From contig CAZZNR010000001.1 in NCBI GenBank assembly GCA_964655835.1, forward strand, positions 1-34,068: 34,068 nucleotides of DNA, in the 5' to 3' direction. Source of the stretch: an uncultured Muribaculaceae bacterium. Its GTDB lineage: Bacteria > Bacillota_I > Bacilli_A > RF39 > UBA660. Position 1 is the first letter of the stretch. Each line of letters opens with the position of its first letter. The translations under genes were made by a program, and so were the position numbers. Of this stretch, positions 1 to 25,195 are shown piece by piece. The notes under the pieces are model-generated. The model ran no database searches. It saw nothing but the letters and a program-made list of their open reading frames with translations, and was not told the origin of the DNA.

Positions 1-86
1 AATATTTAAGTTCAGCTCCTAAAGTACCAACTAATAAAGTATTAATCACTGGGCTTGATTCATATTTAATATACAGTTCTCAATAA
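1..86 (+). CDS. 3' fragment (start lies left of the window) of a third tandem paralogue of the ~205-aa exported TasA/camelysin-like family
   Basis: Frame 3 translates to YLSSAPKVPTNKVLITGLDSYLIYSSQ* (stop 84-86). This is colinear with the C-termini of the next two genes (..VDIEGLDSYLIYSAI*, ..VNIDGLDAYLVYNSQ*). Confidence 0.7.
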   Translation, partial: YLSSAPKVPTNKVLITGLDSYLIYSSQ

Positions 87-175
87 ATATAATATGGTTT
101 AACCCTATTTATAATAGGTTTAAATATAATCCATTTAAAAAGATTTCCTTTTTAAATTAGAAAGAGGTAAAAGGT

Positions 176-790
176 ATGACTAACAAAAAAACATTAGTAT
201 TTGCAGCAGTAATTGCAACATTAACATCATTATTTTTTGGAGCAATTGGATATGCTGCATTAACTCAAAGATTAGATGTTCAAGGAAGTGCTGAATTCGT
301 TCCGGAAACATGGCAAGTTAATTTTAAAGCTGGTTCTCTAAGTAGCCCCACTTTAAATTTAGCAACTGTAACCACAGCTCCTACATTATCTGATACAGTC
401 ATTGGTGATTTTGCAGTAAACATTACTCAACCAGGTTCATCTGTAACATATACTTTTGATATTGAAAATACCGGTACACTTGATGCCGAATTAACTTCTT
501 ATGTTTTAGGCACACCTGTATGTACAGGAACAACCGGGGATTCTAAAACAGCTGATGAAGCTATTGTTTGTAGCGATGATTTAACATATACTTTAACATA
601 TGTTAGTGGTGATTTAGCATCAAATGGTGTCACAGCTGGTGATGATATTGCAATAGGTGATACACTATTAAAAGACACTACTGTTAAAGTACAATTAAAA
701 CTTGAATTCTCAAGTGCTGCAACAGAACTGCCTTTAGCAGCAGTTGATATAGAAGGTCTAGATTCATATTTAATCTATTCAGCTATATAA
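176..790 (+). CDS. Exported small beta-rich protein, TasA/camelysin-like, with SipW-type signal peptide (tandem paralogue)
   Basis: RBS AAGAGG lies upstream of the ATG. The N-terminus is MTNKK plus a hydrophobic span ending GYAALTQ. It has the TasA-like core motif ITQPGSSVTYTFDIENTGTLDAEL and a conserved Cys pair (PVCTG ... IVCSDD). More than half of the residues are identical by eye to 832-1449. Confidence 0.75.
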   Translation: MTNKKTLVFAAVIATLTSLFFGAIGYAALTQRLDVQGSAEFVPETWQVNFKAGSLSSPTLNLATVTTAPTLSDTVIGDFAVNITQPGSSVTYTFDIENTGTLDAELTSYVLGTPVCTGTTGDSKTADEAIVCSDDLTYTLTYVSGDLASNGVTAGDDIAIGDTLLKDTTVKVQLKLEFSSAATELPLAAVDIEGLDSYLIYSAI

Positions 791-831
791 ATCATATTTA
801 TTGATTATTTAGTAGAAAGAAGTGAAATTAT

Positions 832-22351: not shown

Positions 22352-23491
22352 ATGAATGATTTAAATGTAGTGGATCTATATCATAATTCTAGTGATAATA
22401 AAAGGAAAGATTTCTTAAAAAACCATAAAACCAAAATTAAGATTGATCATAATTTCGAAAAAAATATTGTTGATGATTCATGGTTAATAAAAATAGAAGA
22501 AAATATTCGTTATATAGATAATATATTAAGAAATCCTAATCGTTTTATTATAAATGAAGAAGAAATAGTTAAAGTAGAACTAGCTAAAAGAATTACAGTT
22601 GACAGCATTAAACATTTATCGCGAAATACTAGTTTTATTCAAGATATTGATGAAGTTACTGGTGATGTAAAACCTTCCAAAGTATTAAATATTAATAAAG
22701 AAGAAAGTTTTAATACATATGAAAATAGGTTTATTTATACTTTAATAAAAAATTTAATGATGTATGTTGATATTAAAAAAAGAAGTATAAACTTAGGGGC
22801 TTCAAGCAAAAATGATAAATTACTTACGTATGAAGGCGAATCTAAAGTTGGTAATGAAAACGTTAATATTAGTTTAGTTTTAAATAGTTCTATGAAAGAT
22901 GATATTTTTATTAATGAATTAGAAAAAAGGATTAATAAAGTTGAATTTCAAATTAAAGATTTAGTTAATACCGATTTATATAAAAATATTGATCGTTTAA
23001 GAGTCGCTTTAGTAACTGCCCCGATTAAAAAAACTAATTTAATCTTAAAAAATACTAATTTCCAGCATGCTGTTGCTCTTTGGAATTTTCTCCAAGAAGA
23101 AATGAATGATAATTCGGAAGTTGAAACCGGCAATAATGTAATTGAAAATGATCCCAAAATAAAAAAATTACTAGATGAAACTTTCTTACTTAATTATTTT
23201 ATTTTAAACTCAGTTGATAACGATGAAAAATTAGATAATGATAAAAAAATAAAACAAAATCGCGATGTTCTTATTAATAATATGATTCAAGATTTAGTAG
23301 TAACTAATCGCGACTTAACAATTGATCAATTAGGTGATATAGTAAATAAACAAATCCAATTAGTCAAGAAACAAGCTTTAGCAGATGAAAAAGAAATTAG
23401 AGCCATATTTGAATCAGCTATCAATGAATATTTGGAAATGATATATAATGCTAATTTAGGTGATGAAGATGAACAAGTTAATAAACAATAA
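22352..23491 (+). CDS. McrC-like partner protein without recognisable PD-(D/E)xK nuclease motif
   Basis: It starts 8 nt after the AAA+ gene. It contains ESFNTYENRFIYTLIKNL, which resembles the conserved (S/T)xENR(F/I/L) helix I remember from McrC/DUF2357-type partners, then ..NFQHAVALWNFL.. and ..LLDETFLLNYFI... The C-terminus is helical and acidic, and I found no D..(D/E)xK pattern. The assignment is from memory of motifs, not a search. Confidence 0.5.
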   Translation: MNDLNVVDLYHNSSDNKRKDFLKNHKTKIKIDHNFEKNIVDDSWLIKIEENIRYIDNILRNPNRFIINEEEIVKVELAKRITVDSIKHLSRNTSFIQDIDEVTGDVKPSKVLNINKEESFNTYENRFIYTLIKNLMMYVDIKKRSINLGASSKNDKLLTYEGESKVGNENVNISLVLNSSMKDDIFINELEKRINKVEFQIKDLVNTDLYKNIDRLRVALVTAPIKKTNLILKNTNFQHAVALWNFLQEEMNDNSEVETGNNVIENDPKIKKLLDETFLLNYFILNSVDNDEKLDNDKKIKQNRDVLINNMIQDLVVTNRDLTIDQLGDIVNKQIQLVKKQALADEKEIRAIFESAINEYLEMIYNANLGDEDEQVNKQ

Positions 23492-24032
23492 ATTTATGAA
23501 ATTTTTATGGAAATTTATCCAAATTGTTTTGGGGATTATTTTATTCTTTATTTTAATTATTATTGTTACCCAAAGAGTTTTTAATAATAAATTTTCTTTT
23601 TTAGGTTATCAAATATATACTGTAGCAACCGGTAGTATGGTACCAAAGTATAATGTTCATGATTTAATATTAGCTAAAAAAATTAATCCTGATGATATTA
23701 AAGTAAAAGATGATATAGTCTACAATGTTAAAGAAGGTGACTTAATAGGTAATACTATCACTCACCAAGTAATTGAAATCCAAGAAAAAGATGGCAAAAG
23801 GTATTTTGTTACCCAAGGTATTGCTAATCCACTAGCAGATCCTTTAGTTGATGAATATCAAGTTCAAGGGAAAATAATTTATAAATTAGTCTCTTTCAGT
23901 TTAATAAATAAAACAATAAATACTAATATAGGATTCTTTTTATTAATTGTAATACCCATCGCAGTTTTAATATTATTAGAAATAATAGACCTAAAAGAAA
24001 AAAGAGAAAGTTTAAGTATTAAAGATGAGTAG
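23469..24032 (+). CDS. Signal peptidase I, SipW type (S26B), with a variant Asp box
   Basis: The track start is GTG at 23460. The ATG at 23469 has AGGTGA 6 nt upstream. Ser box VATGSMVPKY and His box TITHQVIEI are present. The Asp box reads TQGIANPLADP (GIAN instead of GDxN). N- and C-terminal TM spans. It overlaps the end of 22352-23491. Confidence 0.75.
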   Translation: MNKLINNKFMKFLWKFIQIVLGIILFFILIIIVTQRVFNNKFSFLGYQIYTVATGSMVPKYNVHDLILAKKINPDDIKVKDDIVYNVKEGDLIGNTITHQVIEIQEKDGKRYFVTQGIANPLADPLVDEYQVQGKIIYKLVSFSLINKTINTNIGFFLLIVIPIAVLILLEIIDLKEKRESLSIKDE

Positions 24033-24615
24033 TATCGATTTAAGAAAAAAACTTAAAAAAAGTATTAGATTAAAATTACTAATAATTTTAGGAACCTTAT
24101 TAGTAGTAAATACTTTTGCTTGGTTAATATATACAAATACGATTGGTACTACCATCACTGCTTCAATTAAAGCTTGGAAAATAACTTTCAGTAGTAATAA
24201 TGAAGTAGTTGAATATGTCGAATTTGACATTAATGAACTATATCCAGGAATGCCTGATTATGATAATTATATTAAGATAATTAATTATGGTGAAATTGAA
24301 GCTGATGTTTCATACGAATTAGAAGAAGTCACAATATTAGGTACTACTTATACGGATGAAGATTATACTAGTTTAGAATTACTAGGTATATTAAACGCTA
24401 ATCCTTTTCAAGTAACATTTAGTTTTGACAAAACTACGGTTGGGATTGCAGAAGACTTCGCTGAATTTAATGTTAATATCACTTGGCCATATGAAAATGA
24501 TAATGATGTAGCTGATACCCAATGGGGTTATGATGCTTATAATTTTAATCAAGACTATCCGGGCGATCCCCATTTAACAATTATACTTAAATTAATTGCT
24601 AATCAATCGCAGTAA
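24025..24615 (+). CDS. Exported TasA-like protein (..VNTFAWLIYTNT signal region)
   Basis: 8-nt overlap with the peptidase gene. Motifs ASIKAWKITFSSNN, LYPGMPDYDNYIKIINYGEIEADVSYEL, NVNITWPYENDND, and C-terminal ..KLIANQSQ. Confidence 0.65.
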   Translation: MSSIDLRKKLKKSIRLKLLIILGTLLVVNTFAWLIYTNTIGTTITASIKAWKITFSSNNEVVEYVEFDINELYPGMPDYDNYIKIINYGEIEADVSYELEEVTILGTTYTDEDYTSLELLGILNANPFQVTFSFDKTTVGIAEDFAEFNVNITWPYENDNDVADTQWGYDAYNFNQDYPGDPHLTIILKLIANQSQ

Positions 24616-25195
24616 CTTGCTTAAAGTTTATTAAGACACTTAAGACCGCTTGAGCTTGAGCTATGGTTGCATCGGTATCGGCCTCATTATCCATGGTTTC
24701 AGTTAAGGAATCTTCCCAAGTAATATAAATTCTAATTGTTTTAGTACGTTCTACTTCTGATAATAAGATTGTATTAGTAATATTGGTTAAACCCCCACTT
24801 ACGGGTACTATCGTTCCACCATCGATTGAATAACCCGTAACTATTAAATCAGTTACACCACTACTTTCGGGAATAGAAGTAACTATTGTATATTCAAAAG
24901 ATGTATCAACATTAGAATAATCTAAAACTAAATCAAAATAGCCAACTGACTGGGGAGCAAAAACTCCCTCTTTTACATGGTCGCTACTGATGGTTGAAGG
25001 AGTTATAGCATTAGTTATATATGAATTATCTATTATATCTTGGTTATTAATTGATATTTGCCATCTAGCAATCGATAAAGAAGCATCTCCTTGTGCAGCA
25101 GTATTATATTTACTATAGGTATCTTGAACCATACTAACCAAAGCAAAAAGAGATAAAAATGCTAATGCTAGTTTTATGTTATAAAATTTTGGCAT
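24599..25195 (-). CDS. Exported TasA-like protein (paralogue of 6586-7167), monocistronic
   Basis: Signal-like N-terminus ..LVSMVQDTYSKYNT. Motifs as listed for 6586-7167. It has its own promoter candidate. Its 3' end overlaps the convergent 24025-24615 by 17 nt. Confidence 0.65.
   Translation of the reverse strand: MPKFYNIKLALAFLSLFALVSMVQDTYSKYNTAAQGDASLSIARWQISINNQDIIDNSYITNAITPSTISSDHVKEGVFAPQSVGYFDLVLDYSNVDTSFEYTIVTSIPESSGVTDLIVTGYSIDGGTIVPVSGGLTNITNTILLSEVERTKTIRIYITWEDSLTETMDNEADTDATIAQAQAVLSVLINFKQVTAID

Follow-up and report, generated by a model that had tools for sequence, protein, structure and literature searches.

A conserved gene block of uncultured gut bacteria that joins an McrB-like GTPase, signal peptidases and exported proteins, with a probable role in surface fibre assembly

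CoCoPALM was named by Bell et al. (eLife 2024; PMC11090510) as a clade of McrB-like GTPases associated with signal-peptidase genes, and a role in pilus assembly was predicted. The name is given there in one paragraph, without a parts list, a subunit analysis or experiments, and this type of system is so far only named in the literature. It was found that a locus in the window (the whole 34,068-nt stretch of DNA analysed) matches the CoCoPALM definition in its architecture: both have an McrB-like GTPase that carries a TM helix and a coiled coil in its N-terminal part, an adjacent McrC homologue (DUF2357), and a tight association with genes of the signal-peptidase family. Since this association already bears a name, the first-pass annotation of the locus as a candidate new system was overstated. 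The exported subunit families, the pseudo-peptidases, the giant protein, the candidate anchor and a small ORF are absent from the CoCoPALM account and are documented here.

How does the locus compare with other assembly systems? The tapA-sipW-tasA operon of Bacillus subtilis, camelysin/CalY, and sipW-bsaA of Clostridium perfringens share with it a dedicated S26B (SipW-type) peptidase, a K-rich signal, a T-[YW]-A/aromatic junction (a slash marks the junction throughout), beta-sandwich subunits, a conserved Q in the last strand, and an accessory anchoring or nucleating protein. In contrast, the subunits of the conserved block have no detectable homology to TasA or Peptidase_M73. The block has four peptidase paralogues (two of them dead) instead of one, eight subunit-like proteins and a giant protein instead of one to three subunits, and a GTPase motor pair with cytoplasmic partners, which TasA systems lack. 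The haloarchaeal Tafi fibre has several subunits and its own signal peptidase; its parts are the subunits TafA/C/E, the signal peptidase TafD, the DUF5305 protein TafG and the adhesin TafF (PMC11821415). Tafi and the archaeal bundling pili (ABP; PMC9245690) resemble the block in having a dedicated signal peptidase I, minor subunits, an adhesin-like large protein and a proposed assembly by strand donation. However, neither the Tat signals of the Tafi subunits nor a DUF5305 protein was found in the block, and an NTPase and pseudo-peptidases, both present in the block, are lacking in Tafi and ABP loci. SipA/LepA of Streptococcus pyogenes, a signal-peptidase-like protein reported to be essential for pilus polymerisation (PMC4049620), is a precedent for the two block proteins (7170-7706 and 18429-18956) that resemble peptidases and lack catalytic residues, although SipA works with sortase-linked pili and the block has no sortase or LPXTG subunits. 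[quoted passage not shown] They differ in showing no homology: the peptidase of the block is of the S26B type and not PilD, its NTPase is an McrB-type AAA+ protein and not PilB, and the predicted cleavage is after the hydrophobic segment, not before it.

The main block, 4352-25195, is a true conserved gene block of many uncultured gut bacteria. It is co-conserved in dozens of gut Bacilli MAG species, and its recurrence in 78 genome loci and 80 metagenome loci puts the gene set far beyond chance. The block genes were found jointly in most of the 78 genome loci, from various MAG species, and the flanking genes were not. Gene order is preserved with modular rearrangements, and the neighbours elsewhere are lepA, hrcA or era. 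The co-inherited set comprises the GTPase, its McrC-like partner, two active and two dead SipW/archaeal-type peptidases, eight exported beta-sandwich proteins, the giant protein, two proteins of the cytoplasm that are likewise conserved, and a 41-aa ORF; in divergent loci a minimal core of the anchor, 337-like subunits, a pseudo-peptidase, the GTPase, the McrC-like protein and a peptidase is left. Thus, the claim of a multi-component unit was borne out by the neighbourhood comparison, while the 25-kb super-locus proved to be composite: 4352-25195 is co-conserved, 1-2607 is independent, and 2643-4254 occurs in the two closest relatives only. The coordinates of all ORFs were right when checked within the window, and the tight packing (neighbouring genes overlap or are closely spaced) and the divergence of two operons from 18321-18428 were as first annotated.

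Five archaeal/ER-type signal peptidase I (S26B) homologues are present in the window, in agreement with the five SipW-type paralogues counted at first. Three of them pass the TIGR02228 cutoff of 51.85 bits and retain the Ser, the His and the GDAN..D box. These are the C-terminal domain of a protein with seven hydrophobic spans encoded by the left flank (1474-2607, + strand; 102 bits), a protein with a TM span at each terminus (6006-6581, - strand; 75 bits), and the product of 23460-24032 (+ strand; 72 bits), which has the box as GIAN..D and whose gene lies beside that of the GTPase in 32/32 loci. The other two, 7170-7706 (- strand; 31.5 bits to TIGR02228) and 18429-18956 (+ strand; 26.7 bits to the SipW model), are sub-threshold homologues and paralogues of each other (E=6e-16) without the Ser, the His or the GDAN box, and their orthologues in other species likewise lack all three features. 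As judged from sequence, the block holds dedicated active and inactive peptidases, as had been proposed, and both forms are conserved across species, with catalytic residues consistently kept or lost.

All twelve genes said to encode a K-rich N-terminus followed by one hydrophobic span do so, each with exactly one span: the edge fragment 1-84 and the genes at 176, 832, 4352, 5450, 6586, 9345 (the giant), 16645, 17610, 18916, 24025 and 24599. The junction motifs and the Q in the last strand were also noted correctly and are conserved within each family, except that "GYAALT twice" is GYAALT plus VYAALT. The candidate major subunit is a 337-aa exported beta-sandwich protein (4352-5365, - strand) with the junction STYA/WFTAN and a conserved C-terminal loop, WIEGQDVDCEN. 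Its family is large (2081 clusters; 3732 representatives at 50% identity), and its AF2 model (pLDDT 89) had no significant PDB fold match in Foldseek. TIGR04088, the model of the SipW-dependent-type signal, matches 27/42 family members (best E=3.5e-5), and the junction T-Y-A/W-F parallels the TasA cleavage site T-W-A/A-F, which was verified against 8aur. The supposed SipW-type signal class is therefore supported for this family. A 322-aa paralogue (16645-17613, - strand; TTYA/WFTTN) is 40% identical to the 337-aa protein (E=5e-72).

The smaller exported proteins include two candidate minor subunits on the - strand: a 196-aa protein (5450-6040; ..SAFS/RYET), conserved in 51/78 loci, and a 193-aa protein (6586-7167; SYG/LFE; AF2 pLDDT 77). 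A 307-aa protein (18916-19839, + strand; ..TLG/RFVY) has a conserved NFYF.SDKL motif, a 196-aa protein (24025-24615, + strand) has the junction NTFA/WLIYT, and a 198-aa protein (24599-25195, - strand; DTYS/KYNT; 27/32 loci) is convergent with the + operon with a 17-nt overlap. Profile-profile comparison joined the subunit families in a loose network of distant paralogues; by hhalign, the 5450 family matches that of 24599 at 95% and those of 6586 and 18916 at 88%, and the 6586 family matches that of 24599 at 99.9% and that of 24025 at 92.5%. The AF2 models show a beta-sandwich with a disordered segment after the junction.

Are these proteins TasA-like, as the first-pass annotation had it? For the conserved block the TasA/camelysin label was not supported, with no HMM or profile match and only generic beta-sandwich fold matches. 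Peptidase_M73 matches 0/146 members of the block subunit families, profile searches of the block subunits gave no PDB match, and hhalign against the verified TasA sequence gave a probability below 1%. Foldseek of the subunit models found no match at E<=1e-3; its weaker matches were generic beta-sandwiches only, and the TasA fibre 8aur scored E=0.074 and 0.011. Neither in sequence nor in fold do the block subunits significantly match TasA, camelysin or any solved pilin. The top Foldseek lists do contain fibre-forming jelly-rolls (the TasA fibre, the cannula-like tube 9bab and the LrpA pilin); the 6586 model gave generic jelly-roll matches, including the TasA fibre (E=0.011) and 9bab (E=0.008).

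The candidate membrane anchor or base is a 236-aa protein (17610-18320, - strand). Its cytoplasmic N-tail of 25 residues is conserved, it has a single TM span, and at the end of its external domain stands WIEGDDPDC, a motif common to the major subunit; hhalign aligns the protein with the C-terminus of the 337 family at 89%. It was found in 34/78 of the genome loci and in 24/32 of the long metagenome ones. The 2429-aa exported giant protein (9345-16634, - strand), a candidate tip or adhesive component, consists of an N-terminal signal/anchor, repeats, and a long C-terminal non-repeat region. As first described, it is a repeat protein, with 28 [YF]GG repeats (TNVYGGxN...) of a modal period of 25 residues; it has no Pfam or NCBIfam family match and is conserved, with identities of 32-78%, in 51/78 loci. 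The cytoplasmic proteins that lack a TM span number five (113, 439, 495, 319 and 379 aa), not three as first counted, and a 41-aa helical ORF (9208-9333, - strand) between the giant and 495-aa genes had been missed. This ORF has the motif ELI(E/D).Y..(I/L)..FL..L(E/D), is annotated as a gene in three loci (L079-L081), and has a similar ORF in the same gap in about 20/32 loci. The 495-aa protein (7728-9215, - strand) is helical and mostly cytoplasmic with a weakly hydrophobic segment at 371-389, is conserved in 47/78 loci, and has no family or PDB match. The 319-aa protein (19852-20811, + strand), without an informative family or profile match, is conserved beside the GTPase gene.

The NTPase, counted at first as a cytoplasmic part of the system, is indeed an integral part and co-occurs with the peptidase in 32/32 long metagenome loci, but its sequence indicates an McrB-like GTPase that is anchored in the membrane, and its partner is an McrC-like protein (DUF2357) in which no nuclease domain was detected. 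The 508-aa GTPase (20818-22344, + strand) has a TM span at about 52-80, a coiled coil at about 85-125 that was read directly off the sequence, and the motifs GISGTGKTS (Walker A), ILDEMN (Walker B) and INNDD (signature). INNDD fits NxxD as well as the NxD signature of the CoCoPALM clade. Matches were obtained to McrB in PDB (6hz4, E=2.4e-4) and NCBIfam (5.5e-6) and to PADLOC PDC-M26A (2.4e-35); the relatives form at least 8000 clusters, none functionally named. A crude test detected no FtsB homology of the N-terminus. The 379-aa partner (22352-23491, + strand) matches DUF2357, the N-terminal domain of McrC (1.1e-11), as do 34/34 orthologues, and has no PDB match.

On balance, I lean towards the reading that the locus is an McrBC-linked, peptidase-dependent surface fibre assembly system. 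The observations of the first-pass annotation were confirmed and its interpretation is partly supported: I infer that the block probably builds a surface fibre, in which its proteins would take anchor, major, minor and tip roles. Subunits would enter the membrane via Sec and be retained by the N-terminal hydrophobic span. The dedicated peptidases would cleave after the conserved [TS]-[YFW]-[AGS] junction and free a conserved N-terminal segment (WFT.N and similar), which would allow extracellular polymerisation. Strand donation, as in TasA, Tafi and the archaeal bundling pili, would be the most likely mode. The 236-aa anchor would be the fibre base and the giant protein its distal or adhesive component, while the dead peptidases may serve as junction-binding chaperones or adaptors, with SipA of S. 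pyogenes pili as a precedent. On the cytoplasmic face, a GTPase hexamer with an McrC-like plug, tied to the membrane by the TM helix and coiled coil, may supply energy or a checkpoint for ordered assembly. Fibres of the TasA, Tafi and ABP kind, which grow by donor strands, are not known to need an NTPase, and the role of the GTPase here is accordingly speculative.

The same genes might instead build a non-filamentous surface structure. It could be a coat or sheath, or an anchored adhesin complex with the giant repeat protein at its centre; the small exported proteins would then be scaffold or attachment factors, and the peptidases maturation enzymes. The conservation of the giant protein in the block fits this, and the subunit folds are at least as close to carbohydrate-binding or sensor beta-sandwiches as to fibre subunits. 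However, this seems unlikely. Three features are typical of subunits that polymerise: paralogous subunit families, several in number, whose N-terminal motifs after cleavage are invariant; a membrane anchor with the same C-terminal motif as the major family; and a "major" gene that looks abundant and is flanked by a terminator. In addition, divergent loci in which the giant gene is absent within 10 kb still keep 337-like subunits.

Could the locus be a conflict or defence system derived from McrBC, in which the GTPase pair is a membrane-bound sensor of invaders, with the peptidases and exported proteins as effectors or decoys? The McrB relatives characterised so far are all known to act on nucleic acids in defence; the GTPase belongs to this family, PADLOC matches it best to a candidate defence protein, and the sister clades (CoCoNuTs) are predicted defence systems. 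Nevertheless, I regard this as quite improbable. A nuclease family match is absent from the McrC-like partner (0/34 orthologues), and the DNA-binding domain of the GTPase is replaced by the TM helix and coiled coil. Unlike fast-evolving defence genes, the GTPase is the best-conserved protein of the locus, 53-84% identical across all 80 metagenome loci and 24 aligned database relatives (mean column identity 78%). The block neighbours are housekeeping genes and not defence islands, and no PADLOC match was found among six other proteins scanned (the five cytoplasmic ones and a flanking 635-aa protein), bar a weak coiled-coil match of the 439-aa protein.

A chance adjacency of ordinary, energy-independent TasA-like matrix operons and an unrelated McrBC-like pair is very improbable and, for the core block, largely refuted: although the left flank is not part of the block and some genomes have the giant/337 sub-block with the GTPase sub-block absent within 10 kb, a second search anchored on the GTPase found the DUF2357 gene and the peptidase adjacent in 32/32 long metagenome loci and the 24025, 18916 and 337 families in 29/32, 28/32 and 25/32, the genes of this operon overlap or are 6-12 nt apart, and the pair is kept in the most divergent minimal loci.

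The left flank, 1-2607, is a module of its own, simpler than the block and of the TasA/Tafi kind, made up of a peptidase and subunits. It adjoins the block by happenstance and never does so in other genomes (78 loci). All its genes are on the + strand. Besides the peptidase, it encodes a 204-aa exported protein (176-790; GYA/ALT), a 205-aa paralogue (832-1449; VYA/ALT; 57% identical), and the C-terminal fragment of a third, 204-aa paralogue (1-84), which ends in ...LDSYLIYSSQ and whose full gene lies in the identical contig L079 at 15280-15894. By its sequence motifs the module looks more TasA-like than the main block: the protein of 176-790 is the only one in the window with motif-level TasA/camelysin similarity (Peptidase_M73 E=0.054 over residues 73-105; two colinear BLASTP motif matches to the verified TasA sequence). 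The two lineage-specific cytoplasmic genes on the - strand at 2643-4254, found among the 78 loci only in L001 and L002, the two closest relatives, are probably not core. They encode a 113-aa protein (2643-2984) and a 439-aa coiled-coil protein (2935-4254), both with weak coiled-coil-type matches only. Promoter-like matches in the window are no commoner than in shuffled sequence. The divergent intergenic region (18321-18428) holds a 17-nt palindrome, TATTCTTAATAAGAATA, at 18335-18351, and terminator-like hairpins lie at the end of the module peptidase gene (2598-2626) and directly 3′ of the 337-aa gene (4324-4344, - strand).

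The gene map of the first-pass annotation was reproduced by ORF listing and translation, and its observation of the window (G+C content, about 27%) was confirmed as a whole. A gene tail (1-84) at the left edge is followed by two paralogous genes encoding 204- and 205-aa proteins (176-790 and 832-1449; 57% identical) and by a gene encoding a 377-aa protein (1474-2607), all on the plus strand. A long series of minus-strand genes runs from 18320 down to 2643, a second series lies on the plus strand (18429-24615), and a single convergent gene (24599-25195) lies on the minus strand. 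The tight packing was also borne out, with an overlap of 4 nt at 17610-17613 and other gaps of 2-12 nt. In a hydrophobicity scan, the 11 complete putative exported proteins each had a single hydrophobic span, located at the N-terminus, the NTPase (508 aa, 20818-22344) had one span, and none was found in the 113-, 439-, 319- (19852-20811), and 379-aa (22352-23491) proteins. Three of the four short peptidase homologues have N- and C-terminal spans, while only the N-terminal span is above the cutoff in the homologue at 18429-18956. Rfam and tRNA scans of the window gave no matches, and no promoter is claimed because sigma-70-type matches were no commoner than in shuffled sequences. The divergent intergenic region contains a 17-nt palindrome, TATTCTTAATAAGAATA (18335-18351), directly upstream of the AGGAAG ribosome-binding site of the minus-strand operon. 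Judging from the sequence, the palindrome could be an operator; it could also be a chance product of AT-rich DNA.

Is the whole 25 kb inherited as one unit? A genome-collection scan with the 337-aa protein (4352-5365) found 250 relatives, from which 78 loci were selected. They come from MAGs of uncultured gut Bacilli, 'Mollicutes', 'Tenericutes', and 'Clostridium sp. CAG:567/609/628', the last of which I take to belong to the GTDB order RF39. When all window proteins were compared with the 78 loci by tblastn, the genes from 4352 to 25195 were found to recur together, and thus the proposed gene-neighbourhood comparison supports a co-conserved block in relatives. In contrast, the single 25-kb super-locus proposed earlier was rejected, since 1-2607 and 2643-4254 are not co-conserved and the locus is composite at its left end. 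The genes at 176-1449 had no match in any of the 78 loci, the matches to 1474-2607 were cross-matches of its peptidase domain, and the minus-strand genes at 2643-4254 (encoding the 113- and 439-aa proteins) were restricted to the two closest relatives.

Gene maps revealed that three sub-blocks are shuffled between genomes. The first (B1) comprises the giant gene (9345-16634), a small ORF, the 495-aa gene (7728-9215), a pseudo-peptidase gene, the 193-aa gene (6586-7167), a peptidase gene, the 196-aa gene (5450-6040), and the 337-aa gene. The second (B2) comprises a pseudo-peptidase gene, the genes for the 307-aa (18916-19839) and 319-aa proteins, the GTPase, the McrC-like protein, a peptidase, and a second 196-aa protein (24025-24615), with the 198-aa gene (24599-25195) on the opposite strand. 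The third (B3) consists of the putative anchor gene (236 aa, 17610-18320) and a paralogue of the 337-aa gene (322 aa, 16645-17613). In other genomes the neighbours are housekeeping genes (lepA, hrcA, and era), and in L079, an identical contig that extends further to the left, an RNase R-like gene bounds the whole region on that side. In a second, independent scan, which was anchored on the GTPase and covered metagenome contigs, 32 loci of at least 15 kb were analysed. A DUF2357 gene and a peptidase gene are adjacent to the GTPase gene in all 32 loci, and the families of 24025-24615, 18916-19839, 24599-25195, and the 337-aa protein are present in 29, 28, 27, and 25 of them, respectively. In the most divergent loci, where the GTPase is 53-56% identical, a minimal core is retained. 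It consists of the anchor, a pseudo-peptidase, the GTPase, the McrC-like protein, three 337-like subunits, one small exported protein, and a peptidase. The parts list of the system and its co-inheritance are thus established. Some of the loci (L001-L003, L007, L011, and others) derive from TPA MAG records titled 'uncultured Muribaculaceae' (Bacteroidota), while the locus is of a low-GC Bacilli type; these titles probably reflect wrong taxonomic labels in the source records.

The left module (1-2607) is outside the conserved block and resembles the usual small clusters of the TasA/Tafi type, in which a dedicated peptidase is combined with a few subunits and an adhesin. Its 204-aa protein gave the lone Pfam Peptidase_M73 match, which is marginal (E = 0.054), and shares two colinear motifs with TasA: VNIT--QPGSSVTYTFDIENTGTL versus VNLSNLKPGDKLTKDFQFENNGSL, and LKLEFSSAATE versus IKLQFSFEATQ. 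The 204-aa proteins are outside the paralogue network of the block subunits. The continuation of the module in L079 has a third 204-aa paralogue, and at 15905-19140 of that contig a 702-aa glycine-rich surface protein is followed by a 374-aa membrane protein and then by the RNase R-like gene. The 702-aa protein has two ALK_LTK_GRD domains (9e-72) and a Bact_surface_Ig-like domain; the 374-aa protein matched no family. The module ends at a terminator-like hairpin (2598-2626). In the protein encoded at 1474-2607, about 250 N-terminal residues form a domain that has six hydrophobic spans and no family match; a seventh span precedes the peptidase domain.

Comparison of the peptidases with archaeal-type signal peptidase I models bore out their assignment for three window proteins, which passed the cutoff (51.85 bits) of the NCBIfam model TIGR02228 (archaeal/ER-type signal peptidase I). 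These are the C-terminal domain of 1474-2607 (plus strand, 102 bits), 6006-6581 (minus strand, 75 bits), and 23460-24032 (plus strand, 72 bits), and the second-best model for them is the Bacillus SipW model. Two weaker homologues, 7170-7706 (31.5 bits) and 18429-18956 (26.7 bits), are paralogous to each other (E = 6e-16). Four peptidase homologues lie inside the block. In the alignment, the three strong peptidases have the Ser of the S-x-S-M-x-P box, the His of T-H-R/Q, and the G-D/I-A-N..D box, while all of these are absent from the two weaker ones. Since the orthologues of both weaker homologues in two other genomes (L025 and L010) also lack the catalytic Ser, the His, and the box, the inactivity is conserved and is not a recent decay. 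Some block peptidases in other genomes are longer, at about 365-420 aa, with one of 696 aa in L151.

Are the exported proteins of the block homologous to TasA/camelysin, as was proposed? Direct homology was rejected by Pfam, PDB profiles, and hhalign. Peptidase_M73 matched none of the 146 members of the small-subunit and anchor families, the profiles of the 337- and 193-aa families (A1 and A2) retrieved no PDB chain even at E<=10, and hhalign of these two profiles with TasA gave probabilities of 0.15% and 0.33%, respectively. The PDB profile library does include TasA, since a search with a TasA sequence retrieved 8aur_A and 5of1_A, and the printed alignment to 8aur_A was free of mismatches. 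The major subunit family is large, with more than 3700 representatives at 50% identity; when its profile was compared with such representatives, no bridge to known families was found because the best 150 matches were all close family members. The AlphaFold model is confident for the 337-aa protein (pLDDT 89, pTM 0.85) and fair for the 193-aa protein (pLDDT 77). In both models a signal helix leads through a disordered segment after the junction into a beta-sandwich; the invariant post-junction segments have a pLDDT below 55, which is no more than an indirect hint at donor-strand complementation. Foldseek gave no PDB hit at E<=1e-3 for either model. The TasA fibre 8aur_A ranked third for the 337-aa model (E = 0.074, probability 0.12) and 13th for the 193-aa model (E = 0.011, probability 0.63), and the lists also contain the cannula-like tube 9bab, the LrpA pilin, and many carbohydrate-binding modules; generic CBM-like folds score equal to or above the TasA fibre. 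The TM-scores are low in part because the models include the signal helix. Thus, the fold class is compatible with TasA-like fibre subunits but is not diagnostic.

The expected SipW-type signal was recovered in the major family only. The TIGR04088 model (SipW-dependent-type signal) was matched by 27 of 42 members of the 337 family (best E = 3.5e-5), while the smaller exported families had no match; the 337-aa copy in the window scored 14.6 bits against a cutoff of 19. The invariant junction of the 337 family, S-T-Y-A↓W-F-T-x-N, parallels G-T-W-A↓A-F-N-D of TasA, whose cleavage point was fixed by the first residue of 8aur_A. Each exported family has a conserved junction peculiar to it, and the Q in the last strand is conserved. 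Profile-profile comparison revealed that the exported families form a loose paralogue network, in which the family of 6586-7167 is linked with those of 24599-25195 (99.9%) and 24025-24615 (92.5%), that of 5450-6040 with those of 24599-25195 (95%) and 18916-19839 (about 88%), and that of 4352-5365 with that of 6586-7167 (about 88%) and, through its C-terminus, with that of 17610-18320 (89%). A terminator-like hairpin (4344-4324) directly follows the 337-aa gene, in keeping with an abundant product. The NCBIfam TapA model TIGR04087 matched 5 of the 146 sequences (best E = 1.7e-4), which are small exported homologues from loci L003-L078 (alignment A8). Near the C-termini of 4352-5365, 16645-17613, and 17610-18320, the last two strands are separated by an invariant loop that is acidic and contains one Cys. 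This loop (WIEGQDVDCEN.ASGG or WIEGDDPDC..LIGGE) is common to the major-subunit and anchor families, and it may bind a metal or form an interface between subunits.

The giant protein contains 28 [YF]GG repeats whose commonest spacing is 25 residues at about 690-1520, a pattern consistent with a beta-helix, and it matched no NCBIfam or Pfam family. Between the giant gene and the 495-aa gene lies a conserved ORF for a helical 41-aa peptide (9208-9333, minus strand), which was missed in the first-pass annotation. It starts with TTG here and with ATG in most relatives, has the motif ELI(E/D).Y..(I/L)..FL..L(E/D), and is annotated as a gene in three contigs; a similar helical peptide fills the gap in about 20 of the 32 loci.

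The 508-aa GTPase is the best-conserved protein of the system: it is 53-84% identical to its counterparts in each of the 80 metagenome loci and to the relatives aligned from databases, and column identity averages 78% over 25 relatives. Its match to the Escherichia coli McrB structure 6hz4 (E = 2.4e-4) aligns the Walker A, Walker B, and signature motifs, and the NCBIfam McrB model matched at 5.5e-6. The best family match is PADLOC PDC-M26A, a candidate defence protein (2.4e-35, 120 bits), far above canonical McrB (about 25 bits); the literature search found no mention of PDC-M26. The N-terminus is not a DNA-binding domain but a TM helix (a single span at about 52-80) and then a coiled coil, a helical stretch with a heptad-like pattern, SLVEQESLLEEVANLNKKVLSLSKEKDEIL. 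A crude comparison of the N-terminus by hhalign with an E. coli FtsB sequence gave a probability of 0.2%, and Pfam DivIC/FtsB did not match the GTPase. The invariant signature motif I-N-N-D-D fits 'NxD followed by a second D' (PMC11090510), although NxxD fits just as well when the motif is aligned to E. coli McrB without gaps. More than 8000 clusters at 90% identity make up the family, and no functional name is attached to any of them. The adjacent 379-aa protein has a DUF2357 domain (the N-terminal domain of McrC; 1.1e-11), as do all 34 orthologues tested. None of these 34 matched a nuclease family, in a search of limited sensitivity for a degenerate nuclease fold, and PDB profile searches gave no match for the rest of the protein, in which a K/E-rich region (about 150-215) is poorly conserved. 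Such searches gave nothing informative for the 379-, 319-, and 495-aa families, which are mutually unrelated by hhalign.

The system belongs to a class that is already named in the literature but barely described. In one paragraph, Bell et al. (eLife 2024; PMC11090510) gave the name CoCoPALM to a large clade of McrB-like GTPases that carry a fused FtsB-like TM helix and coiled coil, and deferred the details to a future paper. No follow-up paper was found in the literature search. The window has a McrB-like GTPase domain, an adjacent DUF2357 McrC homologue, and an association with signal peptidases; the GTPase pair fits the CoCoPALM description in architecture and context. Canonical McrBC has a PD-(D/E)xK nuclease in McrC and a DNA-binding domain in McrB, neither of which was detected here. 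A dedicated S26B signal peptidase is common to the SipW/TasA systems and the window, while subunit homology to TasA/camelysin was not found. The SipW/TasA systems, Tafi (PMC11821415), and archaeal bundling pili (PMC9245690) have in common the logic of a dedicated peptidase and strand donation, but all of these lack an NTPase, unlike the block. The Tafi protein TafG (DUF5305; PMC11821415) is unmatched in any protein of the window or the L079 extension, and the Tafi subunits have Tat signals, while the N-termini in the window are K-rich without twin arginines. SipA of Streptococcus pyogenes, a signal-peptidase-like protein essential for pilus polymerisation, is a precedent for such a pilus factor (PMC4049620). 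Among all ORFs in 1-25195, no Pfam or NCBIfam match was found to a PilB-type ATPase, a PilC platform, or a PilD prepilin peptidase.

The earlier interpretation therefore stands insofar as this is a real, elaborate NTPase-containing system dependent on SipW-type peptidases, while TasA homology is not demonstrable and the left end is composite. As the most likely mechanism, I propose a fibre formed through cleavage and strand donation, with a role for GTP hydrolysis. The subunits would be inserted through Sec, tethered by the signal span, and cleaved at the conserved junctions by the two active peptidases, and the freed N-terminal segments would support polymerisation outside the cell. The 236-aa protein, which has a conserved cytoplasmic tail and the C-terminal WIEG(Q/D)D.DC motif of the major family, may be the base of the structure, and the giant protein may be its distal or adhesive part. 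The dead peptidases may bind the junctions as chaperones or ordering factors. The GTPase ring and its McrC-like plug would form a cytoplasmic platform that powers or licenses assembly, possibly together with the 319-, 495-, and 41-aa proteins. A bolder version, which I regard as rather unlikely though conceivable, is an energy-coupled, peptidase-dependent fibre. Here the membrane-anchored, McrB-like GTPase ring, derived from a restriction enzyme, and the McrC-like plug would power or control the stepwise building, and possibly also the retraction, of a donor-strand pilus that has many subunits and a giant adhesin at its tip. Such a fibre would parallel type IV pili in function with unrelated parts and would be the main surface organelle of a large lineage of uncultured gut Bacilli.

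If the proposed function is true, this is a surface-fibre machine with a motor recruited from McrBC restriction enzymes, with SipW/archaeal-type peptidases, and with subunits that have no recognisable relatives among solved pilins. The system is very common, with members in human and animal gut MAGs and in metagenomes of reduced-genome uncultured Bacilli, and its proteins have no functional names in the databases searched. To my knowledge, how these bacteria attach to host or partner cells is uncharacterised. The parts list turns a one-paragraph mention of CoCoPALM into testable hypotheses on the identities of the shaft, the anchor, and the tip, on the role of the dead peptidases, and on why a donor-strand-type fibre would need a GTPase.

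On the right flank, the histidine kinases, the AMP-binding enzyme, and the 635-aa protein were not co-conserved with the block in the tblastn comparison of the 78 loci, and the kinases were thus rejected as members of the system. The two kinase genes (25331-27202 and 31586-33553, both on the minus strand) encode paralogous hybrid histidine kinase/response regulators that are 62% identical and have six TM spans each. They bracket the 635-aa protein (27388-29295), which has a TM span and a Q/N-rich region, the AMP-binding enzyme, and an acyltransferase fragment.
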